From IMG/VR virus record IMGVR_UViG_3300020446_000005: a stretch of DNA of 20,000 nt, one strand, 5' to 3'. Position numbers and translations under genes: made by a program. The stretch comes from an uncultured virus (IMG/VR IMGVR_UViG_3300020446_000005) (taxonomy: Duplodnaviria; Heunggongvirae; Uroviricota; Caudoviricetes). The notes beneath the pieces are model-generated. The model made no database searches. It was not told the origin of the DNA and saw only the letters and a list, made by a program, of their open reading frames with translations. Below are positions 1,815 to 14,156 of this stretch, piece after piece (position 1 is the first letter of the stretch; each line of letters opens with the position of its first letter).

Positions 1815-2485
1815 GTTATAGTTCCAAAATCTAAAGAAGATTCTGCATTATCACTTACTAAACCAAAATTTATACTTTCAGTTACTGTTTCTTTTACAAA
1901 ACGCCAATCCAAAACAGAAACATTTAAACTTATAGAATAATTTGTTTCAAGATATCTAATATCATTTGTAATTAAAAATAAATATTCACCTCTATCTAAA
2001 CTTGTTTTTGGAAAATCTGTCTGTAAAACTCCATTATCATCATCAAGATAATCAATAGCACTTTCTTTATGGACATAACCATCGTTATTTATTGGTAACT
2101 CTTCTCTTCTACCATCTTCTAATATTTGGTAAAAAGCTAATAAAGTATTTCTATTAGTATTTTCTTCATATGAAAACTGAGAAAAATCCTGTGTAAATTG
2201 AATTGTTCGCGGTTTTTGTAAACTTATTTTATAAAAAGTCGTTTGTTTTCTAGTTAGACCACCATGAGTATTTCTTATCGTAAATGATTTAAATATAGAT
2301 GAAAAATCACCTAAATCTATTGGATTATTTAAATTATCACCTTGTTCTGCTGGTAATGGGTCAGACCCAAAGTAAGATGTCGGACCATAAGCTGTAGGTC
2401 CACCACCACCAGTAGGATATGTTTCTACTAATCCTAAATTAACGAAGCCTTTATTACTTGGTATTGTAGTTAGGAATCTTGACAT
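1811..2485 (-). CDS. Hypothetical beta-rich protein with possible PPC-like (pre-peptidase C-terminal) beta-sandwich
   Basis: GDNLNNPIDLG...TTFYKISL...LDRGEYLFLI...NYSISL pattern; short C-terminal repeats (SINFGLVS / SLDFGTIT). Confidence 0.6.
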   Translation of the reverse strand: MSRFLTTIPSNKGFVNLGLVETYPTGGGGPTAYGPTSYFGSDPLPAEQGDNLNNPIDLGDFSSIFKSFTIRNTHGGLTRKQTTFYKISLQKPRTIQFTQDFSQFSYEENTNRNTLLAFYQILEDGRREELPINNDGYVHKESAIDYLDDDNGVLQTDFPKTSLDRGEYLFLITNDIRYLETNYSISLNVSVLDWRFVKETVTESINFGLVSDNAESSLDFGTIT

Positions 2486-3606
2486 TTTTGGCAGTTGAGT
2501 TGTTGTCTATTCTTGTAATATTCGAATATGTTGTCATGACTTAGTTTAATCGAGGTAATTTTTTTTGGATAATCATTATCTTTTAATTCTTTTATTGTCA
2601 GATGTTTGGGGTTACAACAAAAAGATTGACAGCTTGGTTTACTAAATATTCTATATTTACCTGTATATCCTCTACTTAGCCAAAAAGCTATTCGTGGTGC
2701 GGATTGTGTCTTACCTGAATGAAAAGGTGAGGGAAAATATGCTGTTGATTCCGTATTATTTTTTCTTGTTGCACCTTTCCAAGGCCAGCAGGAATCTTCA
2801 TCTTTAACCTCTACCTGCTCCCAAAATCTTTTTACCTGCCAATACCATCTAAAGTCAAATTCTCTAACATCAACCAGACATCTTCCTTCTTTTATCTGCT
2901 TCATACAATCTAGACACTCTCCCATAATTCCAAAATTACCCTTATGCTCTTTTGTATTTTTTATGTGCCAAGGGCATTCTAAATTTTGAGTCACAAGAAA
3001 ATTTAATTTATATTTTTTTGATTCTTCTGGAAATGAATGACTTATCTGTTCACAGATTTTAGAGAGATTATCCCAGATTTCTTTTTCATTGTAATCATTT
3101 TTTCTGTCTTCAGCATCCTCATATGTCTCATAAGAACATATTCTTCTAACGGAATGATATGGAAGTCTATAAGTCTTTGATAATTTTCTACTACTTATTC
3201 CTTTCTTACTTTCCTGTCTTAATTTACTTATTAAGAAAGTATCTATACTATTTTCTTTTATAGAAGCACATTCATAAGCTACATCTTTTCTTGTGCCCCA
3301 ATAATAATGACTAGGGTTTAAACAATATGGAGACTGACAAAATCCTTTGCGTACTATTATTGTTTTTTCTTCTTTTGGTATTCTTCCAGTTAAGTAAAGT
3401 AAAAGTTCTCTAGCATCTTTTCCAGAATATAATAATTTATTTTTTTTACTGGTATTAAAACCTTCAAATGCAGAATGTTTTATTTTTTTCATACACCAGC
3501 ATTTTTCTTTTCCAAGTACTTTTAAACCTGTTTTAAAAGCATTTATAAATTTTATTTGGTCATAAGGAGTTAAAAGGTTGTACAGGAAAGGGTTTTCGAT
3601 TTGCAT
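2470..3606 (-). CDS. Tandem HNH/His-Me-finger-like protein with central HTH and Zn-finger; probably nuclease-dead
   Basis: Two copies of CW...CxxxxCxNPxH (CQSPYCLNPSHY; SCWPWKG...CQSFCCNPKHL), an HTH-like segment ISSRKLSKTYRLPYHSVRRI, and CPWH...CLDC. Confidence 0.75.
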   Translation of the reverse strand: MQIENPFLYNLLTPYDQIKFINAFKTGLKVLGKEKCWCMKKIKHSAFEGFNTSKKNKLLYSGKDARELLLYLTGRIPKEEKTIIVRKGFCQSPYCLNPSHYYWGTRKDVAYECASIKENSIDTFLISKLRQESKKGISSRKLSKTYRLPYHSVRRICSYETYEDAEDRKNDYNEKEIWDNLSKICEQISHSFPEESKKYKLNFLVTQNLECPWHIKNTKEHKGNFGIMGECLDCMKQIKEGRCLVDVREFDFRWYWQVKRFWEQVEVKDEDSCWPWKGATRKNNTESTAYFPSPFHSGKTQSAPRIAFWLSRGYTGKYRIFSKPSCQSFCCNPKHLTIKELKDNDYPKKITSIKLSHDNIFEYYKNRQQLNCQKCQDS

Positions 3607-3638
3607 GTGAGTAGGGGGTGGTGTGATTTTTAGTATAG

Positions 3639-3853
3639 ATCCCTTTTATAGCAATGGCAATCATTGAACACCCAAAACCTAATTTTTTTTGCCTATTTTA
3701 TTTACTTCTAAGGAAGATGAGGTTAGGTATGTGACTGTTAAATTTTATATATACACTCTTTTACCTATCCTCAACATATACGTAGCCGAGTAAAACCGCT
3801 ATTTTTTTTACGAATTTGGGTGTTCATAGTAAACTTCAATTATAAAAAGGGAT
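3639..3853. repeat. Long imperfect dyad with three inverted motif pairs symmetric about 3745/3746
   Basis: CCCTTTTATA 3641-3650 / TATAAAAAGG 3841-3850 (9/10); TGAACACCCAAA 3665-3676 / TTTGGGTGTTCA 3815-3826 (12/12); TGAGGTTAGGTA 3718-3729 / TACCTATCCTCA 3762-3773 (11/12). Spacers are 14 and 41 nt on both arms. Confidence 0.85.
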
Positions 3854-3888
3854 TTTAAGAATTATTTTTATAAAAAAACAATAACCAT

Positions 3889-3912
3889 ACCTTTAAGTCT
3901 ATATTTAAAGGT
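3889..3912. repeat. Short inverted repeat ACCTTTAA-N8-TTAAAGGT
   Basis: Perfect 8-bp arms in the intergenic region. Confidence 0.55.
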
Positions 3913-4054
3913 CATAATTAAAAAAAATATGGTAGTAGGGGTAGGTATTTGATTGTATATTTTAAATAAAAATAATATACAAGCTCTTTCTAACCTCAAT
4001 AGTCAAGTAGTTTTGTAAGTGGTAAAATAAAAAAAAGTAAAAATTTTTAATAAA

Positions 4055-4288
4055 ATGACAAATTATGCTGGCTTTGATCAGTCTGGATTAGAAATGAATG
4101 CTGATCTAGGTGATCCGCGTAGACAATCTAAATTACCAGGTGGATATGCAACTCAAGGTCAGGCAGTATCTGCACCTTATGCAGAAGCTAATATGAAAGC
4201 TGCAGAAAAAACAAACCCTATGAATGCAAAGTCTCAAGAAACACCTGTAGGAGATAGGGTTAATGAGTTTTTAAATAGGGTTACTTAA
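4055..4288 (+). CDS. Hypothetical protein (77 aa)
   Basis: ORF track; first gene of the plus-strand block and abuts the next ORF. Confidence 0.75.
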   Translation: MTNYAGFDQSGLEMNADLGDPRRQSKLPGGYATQGQAVSAPYAEANMKAAEKTNPMNAKSQETPVGDRVNEFLNRVT

Positions 4289-4471
4289 ATGGGAGATAAT
4301 GATTTTCCAGCAGTTATGGCAAATGGGGGAAAAAGTTTTTTAGATGGCTATATGAAAAGAAAGGATCTGTATAGTCAATCGGGTACGAGTATTCCTGACT
4401 TGTCAATTGAAAGAGATTTTGAACAAGAATTAGGAAAACCAGCAATAGAAACGGTAAAAATTCGTAGATAA
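4289..4471 (+). CDS. Hypothetical protein (60 aa)
   Basis: ORF track; ATG immediately follows the previous TAA. Confidence 0.7.
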   Translation: MGDNDFPAVMANGGKSFLDGYMKRKDLYSQSGTSIPDLSIERDFEQELGKPAIETVKIRR

Positions 4472-9910: not shown

Positions 9911-10045
9911 ATGGATGATTTATATGATTTAGAAGAAACTAATCACAGATTACTTCTTTTATTTAATATAGAAAAACCATTAAAAGAAGCATCAGATGGT
10001 GCTTGGACAAAATTATCAAAAGAATTAAAAAAAATTAAATTATGA
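9911..10045 (+). CDS. Small hypothetical protein (44 aa, MDDLYDLEET...)
   Basis: ATG at 9911 preferred over the track's GTG at 9842; ATGA overlap with the psbN-like gene. Confidence 0.5.
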   Translation: MDDLYDLEETNHRLLLLFNIEKPLKEASDGAWTKLSKELKKIKL

Positions 10046-10383
10046 ATTATTTTTTATCTTGTCCACCAATATACACATTACCTGGAACTTGGACTGATCC
10101 TGATAAGATTGCTCGATGTAAGGATACATTGATTCCTCACGGAAATTTAGGACAAGGAATAGCTTTTGCTTTATTTATTGGAATTTTATTAATATTATTA
10201 ATACTTTATGGATTATATATGACTTTTGGAAAGGGTGGTAGAAATTTAAAAGATGAAATCAAAGAGCATGCAAGATTACATGAATTAGGAATAGCTCATG
10301 GACATGAAGGTGGAGGAGAAAGGTTTAATTTATCAAAAAAAGCAATGGAAAAAGATTATCCTCAACATAAACATAAAAAATAG
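10042..10383 (+). CDS. psbN: PsbN-like single-TM protein with N-terminal extension and His-rich tail
   Basis: TM helix followed by YGLYMTFGKGGRNLKDEIKEH, resembling the PsbN motif Y(A/S)LYTAFG.PS..LRDPFEEH. N-terminal LSCPPxYTLPGTW matches cyanophage/picocyanobacterial PsbN-like proteins as I recall them. Confidence 0.7.
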   Translation: MNYFLSCPPIYTLPGTWTDPDKIARCKDTLIPHGNLGQGIAFALFIGILLILLILYGLYMTFGKGGRNLKDEIKEHARLHELGIAHGHEGGGERFNLSKKAMEKDYPQHKHKK

Positions 10384-10542
10384 TTATCTTAAACCTCTAT
10401 CTCTACTACCTTTAAACCAATTATCACTCGCGTTTTTTATTTGTTCTTCTTTGTTTTTACAATGAGGACAGTTACATTTACCTTCAGCTGCTAATCTAGC
10501 ATCTATAAAAAAAGGTAAATTCTTCAATTTATACGTTTGCAT
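10384..10542 (-). CDS. Small Cys-motif protein (MQTYKLKNLPFFIDARLAAEGKCNCPHCKNKEEQIKNASDNWFKGSRDRGLR, 52 aa)
   Basis: Manually translated. CxCPHC motif; its stop abuts the psbN-like stop. Confidence 0.6.
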   Translation of the reverse strand: MQTYKLKNLPFFIDARLAAEGKCNCPHCKNKEEQIKNASDNWFKGSRDRGLR

Positions 10543-10572
10543 TAAAAGAAGTATTATCTTTAATTTTATTAT

Positions 10573-10674
10573 TTATACTTCCAATAGACCATTCATTCCT
10601 GCTATTGTGCCGACAATAACAAAAAAGATAAATTCAAATAATGAATAATAAGGGCTGTAAAAAATTTTACTCAT
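10573..10674 (-). CDS. Micro membrane protein (MSKIFYSPYYSLFEFIFFVIVGTIAGMNGLLEV, 33 aa)
   Basis: Manually translated; ATGA overlap with the upstream ORF; single hydrophobic helix. Confidence 0.7.
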   Translation of the reverse strand: MSKIFYSPYYSLFEFIFFVIVGTIAGMNGLLEV

Positions 10675-10745
10675 GCGAAGACAAACGAGCCGGCATTAGT
10701 AAAGATGTAAATAGAAATAACAGTTGTGAAAAGAATGTGATTCAT
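10671..10745 (-). CDS. Micro membrane peptide (MNHILFTTVISIYIFTNAGSFVFA, 24 aa)
   Basis: Manually translated; ATGA overlaps at both ends. Confidence 0.65.
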   Translation of the reverse strand: MNHILFTTVISIYIFTNAGSFVFA

Positions 10746-10909
10746 CGTGTTGATTGATATACAGGAGTCATAACGCCACCGCCTTGATCGTCATCATCAT
10801 CGTCGATAGCTCGTAATATTAGTTCTATTAAAACTAAAGAGCCTATGGGATATAAAACCCATAAGGCTGCCATAGAAGGGGGAAATGAAGAAGGATCACC
10901 AAATCCCAT
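10742..10909 (-). CDS. Small TM protein with acidic DDDDDDQGGG motif (55 aa)
   Basis: MGFGDPSSFPPSMAALWVLYPIGSLVLIELILRAIDDDDDDQGGGVMTPVYQSTR; TAATG-coupled to the last hli. Confidence 0.8.
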   Translation of the reverse strand: MGFGDPSSFPPSMAALWVLYPIGSLVLIELILRAIDDDDDDQGGGVMTPVYQSTR

Positions 10910-11052
10910 TAGATAAAGCCAGGTATTAACTGACCTGTTGTGAGATAAGCACCCACTGCAGCAATGACACCTAACATTGCAAGTTGACCATTTAATCTTT
11001 CAGCAATAATTTTTTGCTTCTCGATTGGTTTTGAGTAAGAATCTATATCCAT
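10909..11052 (-). CDS. hli: High-light-inducible protein (47 aa)
   Basis: MDIDSYSKPIEKQKIIAERLNGQLAMLGVIAAVGAYLTTGQLIPGFI; AExxNG motif and TGQxIPG tail. Confidence 0.93.
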   Translation of the reverse strand: MDIDSYSKPIEKQKIIAERLNGQLAMLGVIAAVGAYLTTGQLIPGFI

Positions 11053-11165
11053 TAAACAAAACCTGGAATTAATTGTCCTGTAAACCCATAGACTGTGCAG
11101 ATTGCGATGAAACCCATCATTGCTGCTCGTCCTTGTGCTTTTAGAAAAATTTCTCTGTTATTCAT
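11052..11165 (-). CDS. hli: Divergent high-light-inducible protein (37 aa)
   Basis: MNNREIFLKAQGRAAMMGFIAICTVYGFTGQLIPGFV; GRxAM and TGQLIPG are retained but ExxN is replaced by LxxQ. Confidence 0.88.
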   Translation of the reverse strand: MNNREIFLKAQGRAAMMGFIAICTVYGFTGQLIPGFV

Positions 11166-11272
11166 TAGAAAATTCCAGGAATTATATTACCTGTTGTTGC
11201 GTATGCACCAACTGCTGCGACGAATCCAAGCATTGCTGCCCAGCCGTTAAATCTTTCTGCTTCAGGAGTCAT
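11165..11272 (-). CDS. hli: High-light-inducible protein (35 aa)
   Basis: MTPEAERFNGWAAMLGFVAAVGAYATTGNIIPGIF, the short multicopy Prochlorococcus/cyanophage-type Hli. Confidence 0.95.
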   Translation of the reverse strand: MTPEAERFNGWAAMLGFVAAVGAYATTGNIIPGIF

Positions 11273-11292
11273 GATAAAAAAGGGGGTTTAAT

Positions 11293-11484
11293 TTAAAAAA
11301 TGCCAGGAATAATCTGACCTGTTGTGGAATAAGCACCTATTAAAGCTACGAAGCCGATCATTGCCCAACGTCCATTAGCTTTTTCAGCTTCTTCTGGATA
11401 GCCTTTATAATTAGGATCTACATCAGTAGTTGGCTCAATAGAATAGATGTTTTGGCGACCGCCACTTTCAGTAACTGTTGTCAT
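11293..11484 (-). CDS. hli: High-light-inducible protein (63 aa)
   Basis: MTTVTESGGRQN...AEKANGRWAMIGFVALIGAYSTTGQIIPGIF, with the canonical ExxNGRxAM motif. Confidence 0.96.
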   Translation of the reverse strand: MTTVTESGGRQNIYSIEPTTDVDPNYKGYPEEAEKANGRWAMIGFVALIGAYSTTGQIIPGIF

Positions 11485-11517
11485 TAGGTATTTATATCTT
11501 CTTAATATTTTAACAAT

Positions 11518-11555
11518 GTTACACTTTGTAACACAAGTTTACATTACTTAATATT
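11518..11555. promoter_or_regulatory. HLR1-like (RpaB-type) direct repeats upstream of the hli cluster
   Basis: Octamers at 10-nt period: GTTACACT 11518, GTAACACA 11528, TTTACATT 11538, TTAATATT 11548. Resembles (G/T)TTACA(T/A)(T/A)-N2 repeats. Confidence 0.6.
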
Positions 11556-11594
11556 CTATATATAAGCTATAAGTATTTCTAATATCCTTTGGTA

Positions 11595-14156
11595 CTACTG
11601 TTTTTCTGGTAATATAGTTTCGCAATTTTTATATTTTTCATCTGAATTTCTAACTGCTAAACCCTTAATAAAGGGTCTACCTTTTTTACTAAACTGTTTA
11701 ATTTCTTTCATACCTAGTTGATTTTTACAACAATCCAAAAGTAAAGATATAAATCTTTTTTGTCCTACAGGTTTTGAACCAGTATCTTCACAATAGGAAC
11801 AGTAACTAGCATATAAATGAAAATTAGAATTGCAGTATCTTTCTTTAGACTCTTTAGCTGCTGGTATTTTTTTACCTACAGCTGCTACAGCTTTTTCATC
11901 ATGTACAACCTCGGATTGTAACCATTCAACAAGATTATTACTCGTCAATAAAATACTATTTCTTACAGATTTTAAGTGATTAACTTTTTCGTATGTATCT
12001 AAAAGATATTCACGCATATCTTTAGTTTTCATTTCTAAAACCCAGTTAACTAATCCTGGTAAATAACTCTTCCATAATCCTTTTACTTCTCCGTTTTCTA
12101 GTTTTATCATCTCTATTGCTTGTGAATTTTTATCCCATAAAGGTCTGTTAAATTCAATAGTCAATCTTCTTCTTGTTAAACCAGAAGTATTATCCGTTGT
12201 TTGTATAGGTTCATTTGCACAAACCATTACCATGCCTGTATAGACAAAAGGTTCTCCTACATTTTTATTTTTTTCTTCAAATCGTAAATTGTCACCTCCA
12301 GTTAAAGCTTTAAAAATTTGTGCAGATCCACCATATCTTTCAGAATCATTAATTAGAGTCAAACGCTTACCTTTAATAGAAGCAATTTCAAATCTACTTT
12401 GTTCTAATTGATTTAAGGTTGTACTTGCGTAATTACCATTACCTACAAGAGCACAACATAAATTAGCAAAAGTTGATTTACCTCTTCCGCCAGGGCCTAT
12501 AACTTCTAAAAATCTCTGTAATTCATGACCTTTACCTACTAAACAAGCTTTTAACCATGCTCTTAATACTTGGACTCTTTCATTATCACCATATTGAGTT
12601 TTCTTTAACCATTCAATAATAGGTCCTGAGTCAGCTTGTGGGTCATAATCAAAATCTAAGCCCCACGTTAAATAATGTTCACAATCATGATCTAAAAACT
12701 CTCCTGTACTCATTTCTAAAACGCCATTTTTAAAAGCTAATTTATCAGGATCATCATTCCAATAGGGTTGTGTAATATAAGCCTTTGTTAAATTAGTAAC
12801 ATCAGACAGTAGATGAGAAGTAAAACCACCTGGAGTAGGTATATTTTCCCTTAGAAATAAATCTTGTACAAAATGTTTATATTCATCTTTATATTCCTCT
12901 CTCCGCCAAGTACCTTTACTGGATTGGTAAAACATAAAAGTATCATATTTAGGATCAAATCTCCATCCACACTCTATAACCATCTGAGTTACATACTCGG
13001 CTAATTCAGAAGCTGGTGGTGTTTTTGGTCTACCTTTATTTTGTAATTTTTGATTAACTACATTTAATTCTTTTTTTGAGGGTTGTCCAAGTATTTCATT
13101 TAATACGTCGTCTACTACATTATTTGCAATAGTATTATCATTTTCAAAAAGTTTTTTAGCCTTTTCTTTTAAAGATTTTCCTGTTTCTACTACAAAACCA
13201 CCTACATCTACATAACCATCTTCTTTTGCCATTGCACGTAGATGATGAAGACCACAATGATTTTCTGGATTAGGACCACCCTCTACTACTTCAAAAGTAT
13301 CCCATTTTCTTTCACATGCACCTTCTTCAAAATTATCAGCTTGTTTTGACCAATCTATCCACTCTGACAAAAGTGAGTCATCAACTTGTTTAAGACACAT
13401 TCCCACTTTTACCCATGAGTCATATTCTTGCGATCTTTCAAGACTTAAATGATCAAGATAAATTTTTGCATCGTTTATATAAGATTCTTGCTCATACTCT
13501 GAACCCTCTTCGTATTCAATATTTACTTGTTGAGTTAATATGCCTTCTTTTACGGGTTTTTTATATTTATTAAGAGGATAAGCTTTTATAATTGCGTCAT
13601 AAAGCCATTCAGGAAGCTCAGGAGGGTTCTTAGCGTGTTCAAAACCACCATGAGGTGTAGTAAAGTATCCATCGGTATCAGGATGGCTTCCCATTATAGC
13701 TCCTTGTCTTGATCTAAATAAAATCTCGAAAGAAGGGATACCTATTTTTATTGTTGCTTTATCTGGTATTAAAGATAATTTTTTTGTAGGAATACTAAAT
13801 AGCATTCTTTGTCTTGATTCTTTTCCAGAAGATATAGTTAAAGTTGGTGGAAAAGCTGCAGCTATTGGAGCTCCTGCTAATTCTTCTAAAGGTTTTATTG
13901 AATCAGGTCCATCTATATCTACCCAAACTAATCCATATTCGTTTGACCATACTCCAGTAATTAATCCAATTCCTGTTGCCTTTCCCTGATCAAACTCACG
14001 TTTAATTTGATCTATCGTATAGGGTTGTGATGTCCAACCAGCAATATAAGCCCTTTTACCTTGTAAAGGAGTCAAAGCCCAATCTCTGGGGATTAAATCA
14101 AAATTAATCTCACCTGCTTTTAAATGATTATTAGATTCTGGTGATGCAGTTGACAT
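11595..14156 (-). CDS. Phage primase-helicase (bifunctional Prim-Pol, PriCT-2, D5/P4-type SF3 helicase)
   Basis: N-terminal LTPLQGKRAY...WVDIDG; YDSWVKVGMCL...W.DWS (PriCT-2); LAFKNGVL (D5_N); Walker A GPGGRGKST, Walker B LTLIND, motif C VCANE. GAGGA RBS upstream. Confidence 0.92.
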   Translation of the reverse strand: MSTASPESNNHLKAGEINFDLIPRDWALTPLQGKRAYIAGWTSQPYTIDQIKREFDQGKATGIGLITGVWSNEYGLVWVDIDGPDSIKPLEELAGAPIAAAFPPTLTISSGKESRQRMLFSIPTKKLSLIPDKATIKIGIPSFEILFRSRQGAIMGSHPDTDGYFTTPHGGFEHAKNPPELPEWLYDAIIKAYPLNKYKKPVKEGILTQQVNIEYEEGSEYEQESYINDAKIYLDHLSLERSQEYDSWVKVGMCLKQVDDSLLSEWIDWSKQADNFEEGACERKWDTFEVVEGGPNPENHCGLHHLRAMAKEDGYVDVGGFVVETGKSLKEKAKKLFENDNTIANNVVDDVLNEILGQPSKKELNVVNQKLQNKGRPKTPPASELAEYVTQMVIECGWRFDPKYDTFMFYQSSKGTWRREEYKDEYKHFVQDLFLRENIPTPGGFTSHLLSDVTNLTKAYITQPYWNDDPDKLAFKNGVLEMSTGEFLDHDCEHYLTWGLDFDYDPQADSGPIIEWLKKTQYGDNERVQVLRAWLKACLVGKGHELQRFLEVIGPGGRGKSTFANLCCALVGNGNYASTTLNQLEQSRFEIASIKGKRLTLINDSERYGGSAQIFKALTGGDNLRFEEKNKNVGEPFVYTGMVMVCANEPIQTTDNTSGLTRRRLTIEFNRPLWDKNSQAIEMIKLENGEVKGLWKSYLPGLVNWVLEMKTKDMREYLLDTYEKVNHLKSVRNSILLTSNNLVEWLQSEVVHDEKAVAAVGKKIPAAKESKERYCNSNFHLYASYCSYCEDTGSKPVGQKRFISLLLDCCKNQLGMKEIKQFSKKGRPFIKGLAVRNSDEKYKNCETILPEKQ

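Follow-up and report, generated by a model that had tools for sequence, protein, structure and literature searches.

An imperfect palindrome with covarying arms lies upstream of a nuclease-like gene in uncultured marine phages and is a candidate DNA-level cis site

The dyad in an intergenic gap of an uncultured marine phage is the core of a single-copy, ~290-bp imperfect palindrome (about 3610–3893) made of nested arm pairs, G, M, and S, around a variable centre. The palindrome is conserved among related phages, its two arms covary, it is linked to the nuclease-like gene on its left, and it carries a promoter-like site. Our preferred reading, which we hold tentatively, is that the block is a hairpin-forming cis site at the DNA level, with a replication origin, a nick or entry site, and the target of the nuclease as candidate roles.

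Composition and symmetry of the block

The window, by which we mean the whole 20,000-nucleotide stretch of phage DNA analysed, has 33% G+C. The dyad lies in the gap between two genes (3607–4054), which is 448 bp long with 27% G+C. The parts of the block and its neighbours are listed below; strand is given for genes and promoters, and the other features have none.

2470–3606, minus strand: nuclease-like gene, 378 aa, with two His-Me/HNH-type C..C.NP.H motifs and a central helix-turn-helix (HTH)
3610–3619: G+ arm, AGTAGGGGGT; outermost conserved arm, within the short 5′ leader of the nuclease-like gene
3632–3660, minus strand: sigma-70-type promoter of the nuclease-like gene, TTGCCA-N17-TATACT (10/12 match), within the left arm
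3639–3650: outer-left motif of the first-pass annotation (9/10 with 3842–3853), overlapping the promoter spacer
3665–3677: M+ arm, TGAACACCCAAA (12/12 with 3815–3826; double-sided change in 9/12 pairs)
3682–3714: left spacer, a T-run and then conserved TATTTTATTTACTTCTAAGGA; T columns almost invariant, mostly unpaired across lineages
3718–3738: S+ arm, TGAGGTTAGGTATGTGACTGT; double-sided change in 10/17 pairs, stems lineage-specific
3739–3752: centre or loop, AT-only in the window; length and composition vary among relatives
3753–3773: S− arm, ACACTCTTTTACCTATCCTCA, partner of S+ on the same evidence
3774–3812: right spacer, conserved ACATAYACGTA..TAAGTAAAA and then a T-run, from the alignment of relatives
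3814–3826: M− arm, TTTGGGTGTTCA, partner of M+ on the same evidence
3842–3853: outer-right motif of the first-pass annotation, unconserved among close relatives
3883–3893: G− arm, AACCATACCTT in the window and CCCCTACC in relatives, followed by a T-rich run; pairs with G+
3936–3998: second S-like palindrome (site 2); many relatives, not all, have a copy
4000–4028, plus strand: promoter-like site for the 77-aa gene, TAGTCA-N17-TAAAAT with TG, giving an extended −10 (TGnTAAAAT)
4055–4288, plus strand: 77-aa gene, function unassigned, followed by tail-fibre genes

The three inverted motif pairs that the first-pass annotation had placed on one axis at 3745/3746 were all found at the coordinates it gave, with spacers of 14 and 41 nt equal in length on both arms; the weaker core symmetry described there as GAnTGT is present as TGAsTGT. 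The middle pair, TGAACACCCAAA at 3665–3676 versus 3815–3826, is complementary at 12/12 positions, and the inner pair (3718–3738 versus 3753–3773, 21 nt) is 76% complementary. We compared the gap with 500 dinucleotide-preserving shuffles of 3607–4054. The best axis in the gap is complementary at 54/107 positions, where the best axes of the shuffles averaged 46.5 ± 2.3 and 7/500 reached 54. Perfect runs of at least 6 sum to 25, against 10.6 ± 2.7 in the shuffles, and this run score was equalled by none of the 500, so the dyad withstood the shuffled control that had been proposed for it. Axis 3745 is also the highest-ranking ungapped dyad across the entire 20-kb window.

The proposed outer pair fared less well. 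Its 9/10 match exists, but it is not above chance when taken alone: the G-to-M segment in which it lies scores z = 1.2 in the window and reaches z ≥ 3 in 4/50 relatives, and its right arm (3842–3853) is lost in the nearest relatives. The true conserved outermost pair is 3611–3616 versus 3885–3890, which had been overlooked.

The additional copies of the inner motif at 3936–3947 and 3990–3998 were confirmed, and together they form a second S-like palindrome. This site 2 is a paralogue of the inner pair S, with half-sites TAGGTA-nn-TGAsTGT, and it lies 220 bp to the right of S, outside the G pair. It is missing in L096, L101, L102, L092–L094, L141, and L115, and in some relatives its right arm is within the 3′ end of a small gene. 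The right arm of S also complements the left arm of site 2, so an alternative pairing is possible.

Conservation and linkage among relatives

We scanned IMG/VR with protein seeds and recovered the nuclease-like gene at 77 loci and the 77-aa gene at 80; the two occur together at 74 loci, separated by gaps of 374 to 2201 bp. For alignment, we took 141 loci that include the gene start plus 310 nt upstream and reduced them to 80 distinct sequences, then to 50 at <90% mutual identity. One distant locus (L131, 30% protein identity) aligned poorly and was left out of the 50-sequence set; an S-like hairpin is still visible there by eye. A scan with an exact 19-mer found five loci, three of which (L001, L002, and L005) were discarded as chance matches in unrelated coding DNA. 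Cultured phages gave no match to 3400–4300 by blastn or to the nuclease-like protein by tblastn, and bacterial genome contigs scanned for the protein held no relative.

Motifs M and S are kept in the relatives, but the outer pair of the first-pass annotation is lost, and the spacers, which it had described as divergent and expected to drift, are conserved in sequence. They are indeed asymmetric between the arms, yet they rank among the best-conserved parts of the alignments. The M–S spacers are mutually complementary at z ≥ 3 in only 7/50 sequences. Overall, the block is conserved to about the same degree as the adjacent gene, with DNA identities of 0.59–0.77 for the block versus 0.62–0.69 for the nuclease-like gene, and the block is higher in 6/7 pairwise comparisons. 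Contig depth over 3633–3817 is 3–9 times that of the flanks in four DNA runs from four studies; we read this as many co-occurring relatives with a common stretch.

The motifs hold constant positions relative to the start of the nuclease-like gene, and the surplus DNA of longer gaps lies to the right of the block. Both M arms are within one mismatch of the window's 11-mer in 35/67 distinct gaps. The 18-mer at 3816–3833, which covers the right M arm, occurs in 28 viral contigs, 27 of which carry the nuclease-like gene; the remaining contig ends before the gene. Whatever the other flank, the block is always directly upstream of the start codon of the nuclease-like gene. The first-pass annotation placed the element at a transcriptional divergence point. 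This describes the window, where the flanking genes are divergent, but in many relatives the block has on its right a 62–69-aa gene that shares the strand of the nuclease-like gene, so it is not always at such a point.

In long-gap relatives, this 62–69-aa gene encodes a Cys-containing protein (MxxIxTFPNGTT...C..GG.C.Y...) and sits directly upstream of the block (minus strand at gap positions 369–569 in L139, 461–655 in L127, and 289–498 in L123); it is missing in the window.

Within the 82.5-kb genome of a relative, G002, clustered M, S, and G motifs are confined to 28.59–28.92 kb, which gives a single copy per genome. The block locus is also the highest dyad match in that genome, at 65/140.

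A/T runs flank M in most sequences of the alignment. Those at 3682–3689 and 3803–3810 switch between A-run and T-run among close relatives (on the left A2T8, A3T7, A4T6, and A5T5). Helix M is lengthened in some lineages by pairing of the left A-run with the right T-run; in the window, where both are T-runs, no such pairing can occur.

The two arms change together

RNAalifold with ribosum scoring predicted the same three nested helices on both strands: G (3611–3616/3885–3890), M (3665–3677/3814–3826), and S (3718–3738/3753–3773). Another consensus folding, of alignment A2 (50 sequences), returned no pairs. We counted covariation on A2 over 35 pairs; three small predicted features, namely a pair of 2 bp at 3642/3657, a hairpin of 4 bp at 3705–3716, and an isolated pair, did not enter this count.

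The paired share of cells in A2 is 84.5%; shuffles gave 75.5 ± 0.5, and none (0/500) was as high. Double-sided changes occur in 22/35 pairs and in 132 cells, where the shuffles gave 50.3 ± 6.2 (0/500), and none of five covariation measures was matched by any of the 500 shuffles. Sliding the partner by 1–3 columns drops pairing to 31–46%. Helix G is paired in 88.1% of cells and has double-sided changes in 3/6 pairs. When the sequences are put in the order of the protein tree, the arm sequences are swapped clade by clade with complementarity kept; the M arm, for example, appears as TGAACACCCAAA, TTATCTACCAAA, TAAACGACCAAA, or TCAACGGCCAGA according to clade. Given this joint change of the arms among many related phages, we consider the block a real working element.

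Mismatches occupy about 19% of the aligned arm positions, loss of 1 nt from one arm is tolerated in the L096 group, and the M arms lie ~150 bp apart. The length of the inner loop varies between about 6 and 45 nt (A2 columns 156–191), and the loop is C-rich in L075 and mixed in L068–L072. The first-pass annotation had inferred a symmetric multi-protein DNA platform. The variable loop and tolerated bulges fit pairing within a strand better than a rigid protein platform, and together with the arm covariation they favour, as judged from the aligned sequences, intrastrand pairing over a rigid symmetric dimer or protein site.

Wobble, folding, and promoter signals

Base-pair covariation had been named beforehand as the mark of a structured RNA. 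The arms do covary like pairs, but no G·U over A·C bias goes with it. The counts that follow are phylogenetically non-independent. On alignment columns, plus-strand mismatches comprise 100 G·T versus 83 A·C. When the arms are aligned with a score that treats both alike, the counts are 92 for plus-strand G·U versus 133 for minus-strand G·U (1.45 to 1 towards the minus strand), with 251 other mismatches. The minus-strand excess comes largely from helix M, at 45 on the minus versus 20 on the plus strand. The lack of a clear bias on either strand argues against a classical one-strand RNA. A search of Rfam, HEARO, ROOL, GOLLD, and cyanophage motifs included, with 3400–4300 on both strands (E ≤ 10) returned seven weak matches only, the best being mir-84 at 16.9 bits versus a cut-off of 60. 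Folding z-scores of the block are −3.1 and −2.8, there is no tRNA in the window, and no terminator-like site was found.

A leftward sigma-70-type promoter (TTGnCA-N16–18-TAnnnT) is found at one of two aligned positions in 42/50 relatives. It is located between M+ and G+, outside the M–M interval. Across relatives, no conserved plus-strand promoter was found left of the block, and no mirror-image promoter was seen by eye in the right arm. The sole conserved outward promoter is thus the leftward one, and the earlier suggestion of a symmetric divergent promoter does not hold. On the right, the TG-n-TAnnAT of the promoter-like site at 4000–4028 is conserved in the alignment of close relatives, and site 2 contains a minus-strand promoter-like sequence, TTGAGG-N16-TATTAT, at 3999–3972.

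The bases just before the AUG of the nuclease-like gene (3610–3619; mirror 3883–3893) read ACCCCCUACU on the mRNA and are almost invariant in relatives. Rich in C, this sequence looks like the complement of a ribosome-binding site, not like the site itself.

The neighbouring nuclease-like protein

The protein encoded next to the block matches the PHROG endonuclease family phrog_1872 (E 6.5e-14, residues 259–345), with further HNH matches in PHROG and profile leads to HNH_3 and zf-His_Me_endon. Invariant Cys, His, and Asn-Pro columns at 90–100 and 326–335 form the two C..C.NP.H motifs. Confidence in the AlphaFold model is middling (pLDDT 67.9). Structure comparison identifies a three-helix HTH at residues 118–171 (Z 5–6.8) and a weak resemblance of residues 4–117 to I-HmuI (Z 4.5 over 86 aligned residues). 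Foldseek against the PDB found nothing at E ≤ 0.001, a PDB sequence search found nothing below E 0.4, and Pfam and NCBIfam have no family for the protein. Names among its 171 homologue clusters are uninformative, and we found no RuvC part and no match to an IscB-like fold. The gene belongs to the syntenic core of the lineage and is not a mobile element.

Genome context

The phages belong to an uncultured marine lineage of about 82–87 kb that carries psbA, with S-EIV1 as its nearest cultured relative. A literature search for a palindromic replication origin in cyanophage returned no match. In the window, replication genes lie further right, with a Prim-Pol/D5-type primase-helicase at 11595–14156. 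G002, estimated in its record to be 96% complete, is an 82.5-kb cyanophage genome that carries psbA, DNA polymerase, primase-helicase, tail genes, and large terminase. Its block is at 28.4–28.9 kb and TerL at 64.7–66.2 kb, ~35 kb off. G001 and G002 are mutual circular permutations, so contig ends are arbitrary and not termini. The tyrosine integrase family PF00589 was found in 0/3 records, two of them 96–100% complete, with 14/14 control genomes positive. The lineage is probably the one described from metagenomes in bioRxiv 10.1101/325100, the main text of which does not mention a palindrome, inverted repeat, origin of replication, or HNH.

Cumulative GC skew in G002 tracks gene strand. Its global minimum lies near 72 kb, and the block at 28.5 kb coincides with a small local dip, so the skew check for an origin did not single out the site.

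One further candidate, a protelomerase target of the telRL type, was rejected: the centre at 3739–3752 is not self-complementary and varies in length, and no protelomerase is among the family matches.

A hairpin-forming DNA site and its alternatives

Nested covariation, the variable loop, the lack of wobble bias, the single copy, and the strict linkage to the nuclease-like gene lead us to infer, tentatively, that the block acts as DNA through intrastrand pairing and forms hairpins. An initiator, or negative supercoiling in the wake of the embedded promoter, would open the duplex, and each strand could then adopt hairpins nearly equivalent to those of the other, with conserved bases at constant places in the stems. 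These hairpins and the conserved unpaired stretches would make a recognition surface for a phage DNA enzyme, and the left arm would double as the carrier of the promoter of the nuclease-like gene. The likeliest role would be a replication origin or a nick/entry site, and the candidate users are the adjacent tandem His-Me/HNH-like, HTH-bearing protein and/or the D5-type primase-helicase. Genes for site-specific DNA enzymes often lie beside their own sites, and SF3-helicase and herpesvirus systems typically have origins with dyad symmetry. As a bidirectional origin, one of the functions first suggested for the dyad, the block would have the expected conserved, single-copy, non-coding palindrome, but it shows no GC-skew switch in G002. 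The distance of 4–8 kb to the primase-helicase gene also counts against this reading. Since the centre is not AT-rich in GC-richer relatives such as L075, a universal unwinding element at the axis is unsupported. Cruciform extrusion from duplex DNA would be hard given the arm mismatches, and hairpins leave the strongly conserved, asymmetric spacers unexplained.

A minus-strand structured RNA, a long leader or intercistronic element folding into G/M/S, is the main alternative, if a somewhat less likely one. Transcripts would enter from the right; their source would be the small upstream gene in many relatives and the promoter-like sequence of site 2 in the window. G−/G+ pairing would cover the bases before the AUG; read-through transcripts would be processed or translationally silent and those from the internal promoter active. 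Compensatory covariation in three nested helices, both folding z-scores, the slight minus-strand G·U lean with its concentration in helix M, and the minus-strand promoter-like sequence at 3999–3972 are consistent with such an RNA. So is the anchoring of the block at the start codon, with G+ 4–13 nt before the AUG, and its position between two minus-strand genes in many relatives, where the 62–69-aa gene of long-gap loci ends right at G− or site 2. Functional RNAs also usually have conserved unpaired stretches. Against it, G·U is not clearly above A·C and other mismatches are the largest class, and this dominance of non-wobble mismatches is unlike the pattern in curated RNA families. There is no Rfam family, a conserved promoter lies within the proposed RNA, and we found neither a terminator-like site nor a conserved plus-strand promoter to its left. 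A bolder version is very improbable in our view: that a new structured RNA of ~280 nt, with three nested helices and conserved loops, partners the adjacent tandem His-Me/HNH nuclease, which would be RNA-associated or RNA-guided, in a module domesticated as a core gene pair of a widespread marine cyanophage lineage. Such a module would be a functional analogue of the omega RNA–IscB pair, unrelated in sequence.

The remaining readings seem less probable again than a leader RNA. We regard as unlikely an operator array in which the palindromes are sites of dimeric regulators, such as the adjacent protein acting on its own promoter, with half-sites that co-evolve with the protein. That protein has an HTH, M+ adjoins the −35 of the promoter, S and site 2 have common half-sites in each genome (TAGGTA-nn-TGAsTGT) with identical C/G asymmetry, and operator–repressor co-evolution can also yield clade-specific palindromes. 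The M half-sites, however, are ~150 bp apart, the S half-sites are separated by about 6–45 nt and tolerate a 1-nt deletion in one arm, and the motifs occur at no other place in the G002 genome; with three distinct motifs (G, M, and S), each of which covaries, several co-evolving proteins would be needed. Another kind of DNA transaction site, for packaging (pac/cos), attP, or recombination/resolution, is more doubtful still. A unique palindrome beside a nuclease-like gene would suit it, and HNH proteins aid cos cleavage in HK97-type phages. Packaging or a terminus, as the first-pass annotation had suggested, agrees poorly with a large terminase gene ~35 kb away and with contig ends that are not termini. 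Its recombination-site candidate (attP or inversion) finds neither an integrase or recombinase nor a flipped interior, there is no tRNA in the window and no relative of the nuclease-like gene in bacterial genomes, and the axis is not the perfect palindrome that a hairpin-telomere site would require. We consider extremely improbable an invertible promoter switch, in which the M arms would be the recombination sites and the promoter-bearing interior would flip. In the window, 12-bp inverted repeats do surround a 138-bp segment between divergent genes, but the interior has one orientation in 80/80 distinct relatives, contigs of four DNA runs show no strand-switch joints, no recombinase was found, and the conserved promoter lies outside the M–M interval.

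Relation to known systems

The closest known things to the hairpin-forming site that we propose may be dyad-symmetric viral origins, with the HEARO/omega RNAs as the bolder analogy; the likeness to either is a candidate one. The SV40/polyoma core, the papillomavirus E1 site, and HSV oriS/oriL are likewise single-copy non-coding palindromes with a variable or AT-rich centre, flanking A/T tracts, promoter proximity, and possible arm hairpins, and the phage has a primase-helicase of SF3 type (D5). The phage block differs in being much longer (~290 bp), with large conserved unpaired stretches and no repeated short initiator boxes that we recognised; its centre is not AT-rich in all relatives, and it is linked to the nuclease-like gene, not the helicase gene. 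The iteron origins of P4 alpha and SaPI Rep also combine a primase-helicase of the broad type with inverted copies of a short motif around a centre. Unlike them, the block has a single inverted pair per motif and no arrays, its motif is replaced between clades, and it is not beside the primase-helicase gene. What we take to be a resemblance of M to the P4 iteron was given no weight, since M is replaced in other clades.

HEARO/omega RNAs, upstream of IscB-type HNH nucleases, are similarly conserved non-coding blocks of a few hundred bases that touch an HNH-type gene. The phage block differs in its lack of an Rfam match, its internal promoter, and the absence of a clear G·U bias, and its neighbour has no RuvC or IscB-like fold and is a syntenic core gene, not mobile. 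The RNase III hairpins between T7 and lambda cistrons are also long and imperfect with internal loops, and like the block in many relatives they lie between same-strand genes. The block is five times longer, with conserved unpaired sequence, an internal promoter, and no wobble signature.

Conservation equal to that of the adjacent gene, a single copy, and arm covariation make the block a concrete and testable candidate for a key cis site of these phages. Should it prove to be an origin, it could be used for replicons or marker-frequency work in an uncultured group; should it prove to be an RNA, it would represent a new nuclease-linked family. The block also carries a caution for covariation-based RNA discovery, as DNA palindromes can mimic strong "compensatory" signals, and the balance of G·U versus A·C helps to separate them from RNA.

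Other sites in the region

At 4288/4289 of the window, precisely where the 77-aa gene gives way to the next small ORF, relatives have an additional 236–343 nt, and several contigs terminate nearby; the position looks like a variable junction opening the tail-fibre cassette. In G002, a 612-bp gap at 72921–73533 (L166 12921–13533) sits at the main strand-divergence point and the global GC-skew minimum and is an alternative origin candidate by skew alone. Dyad scores near 73475 and 74645 are within the top eight of that genome. At 10042–10383 of the window, a 113-aa ORF matches phrog_8051 and has a weak PsbN-like Pfam match (E 7e-4, 19.8 bits, cut-off 25) that may reflect a hydrophobic helix only. 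The ~1.2 kb that follows (10384–11594), between the tail-fibre cassette and the primase-helicase gene, holds short ORFs only, and G002 has a comparable gap after its primase-helicase gene, at 24.4–25.1 kb.
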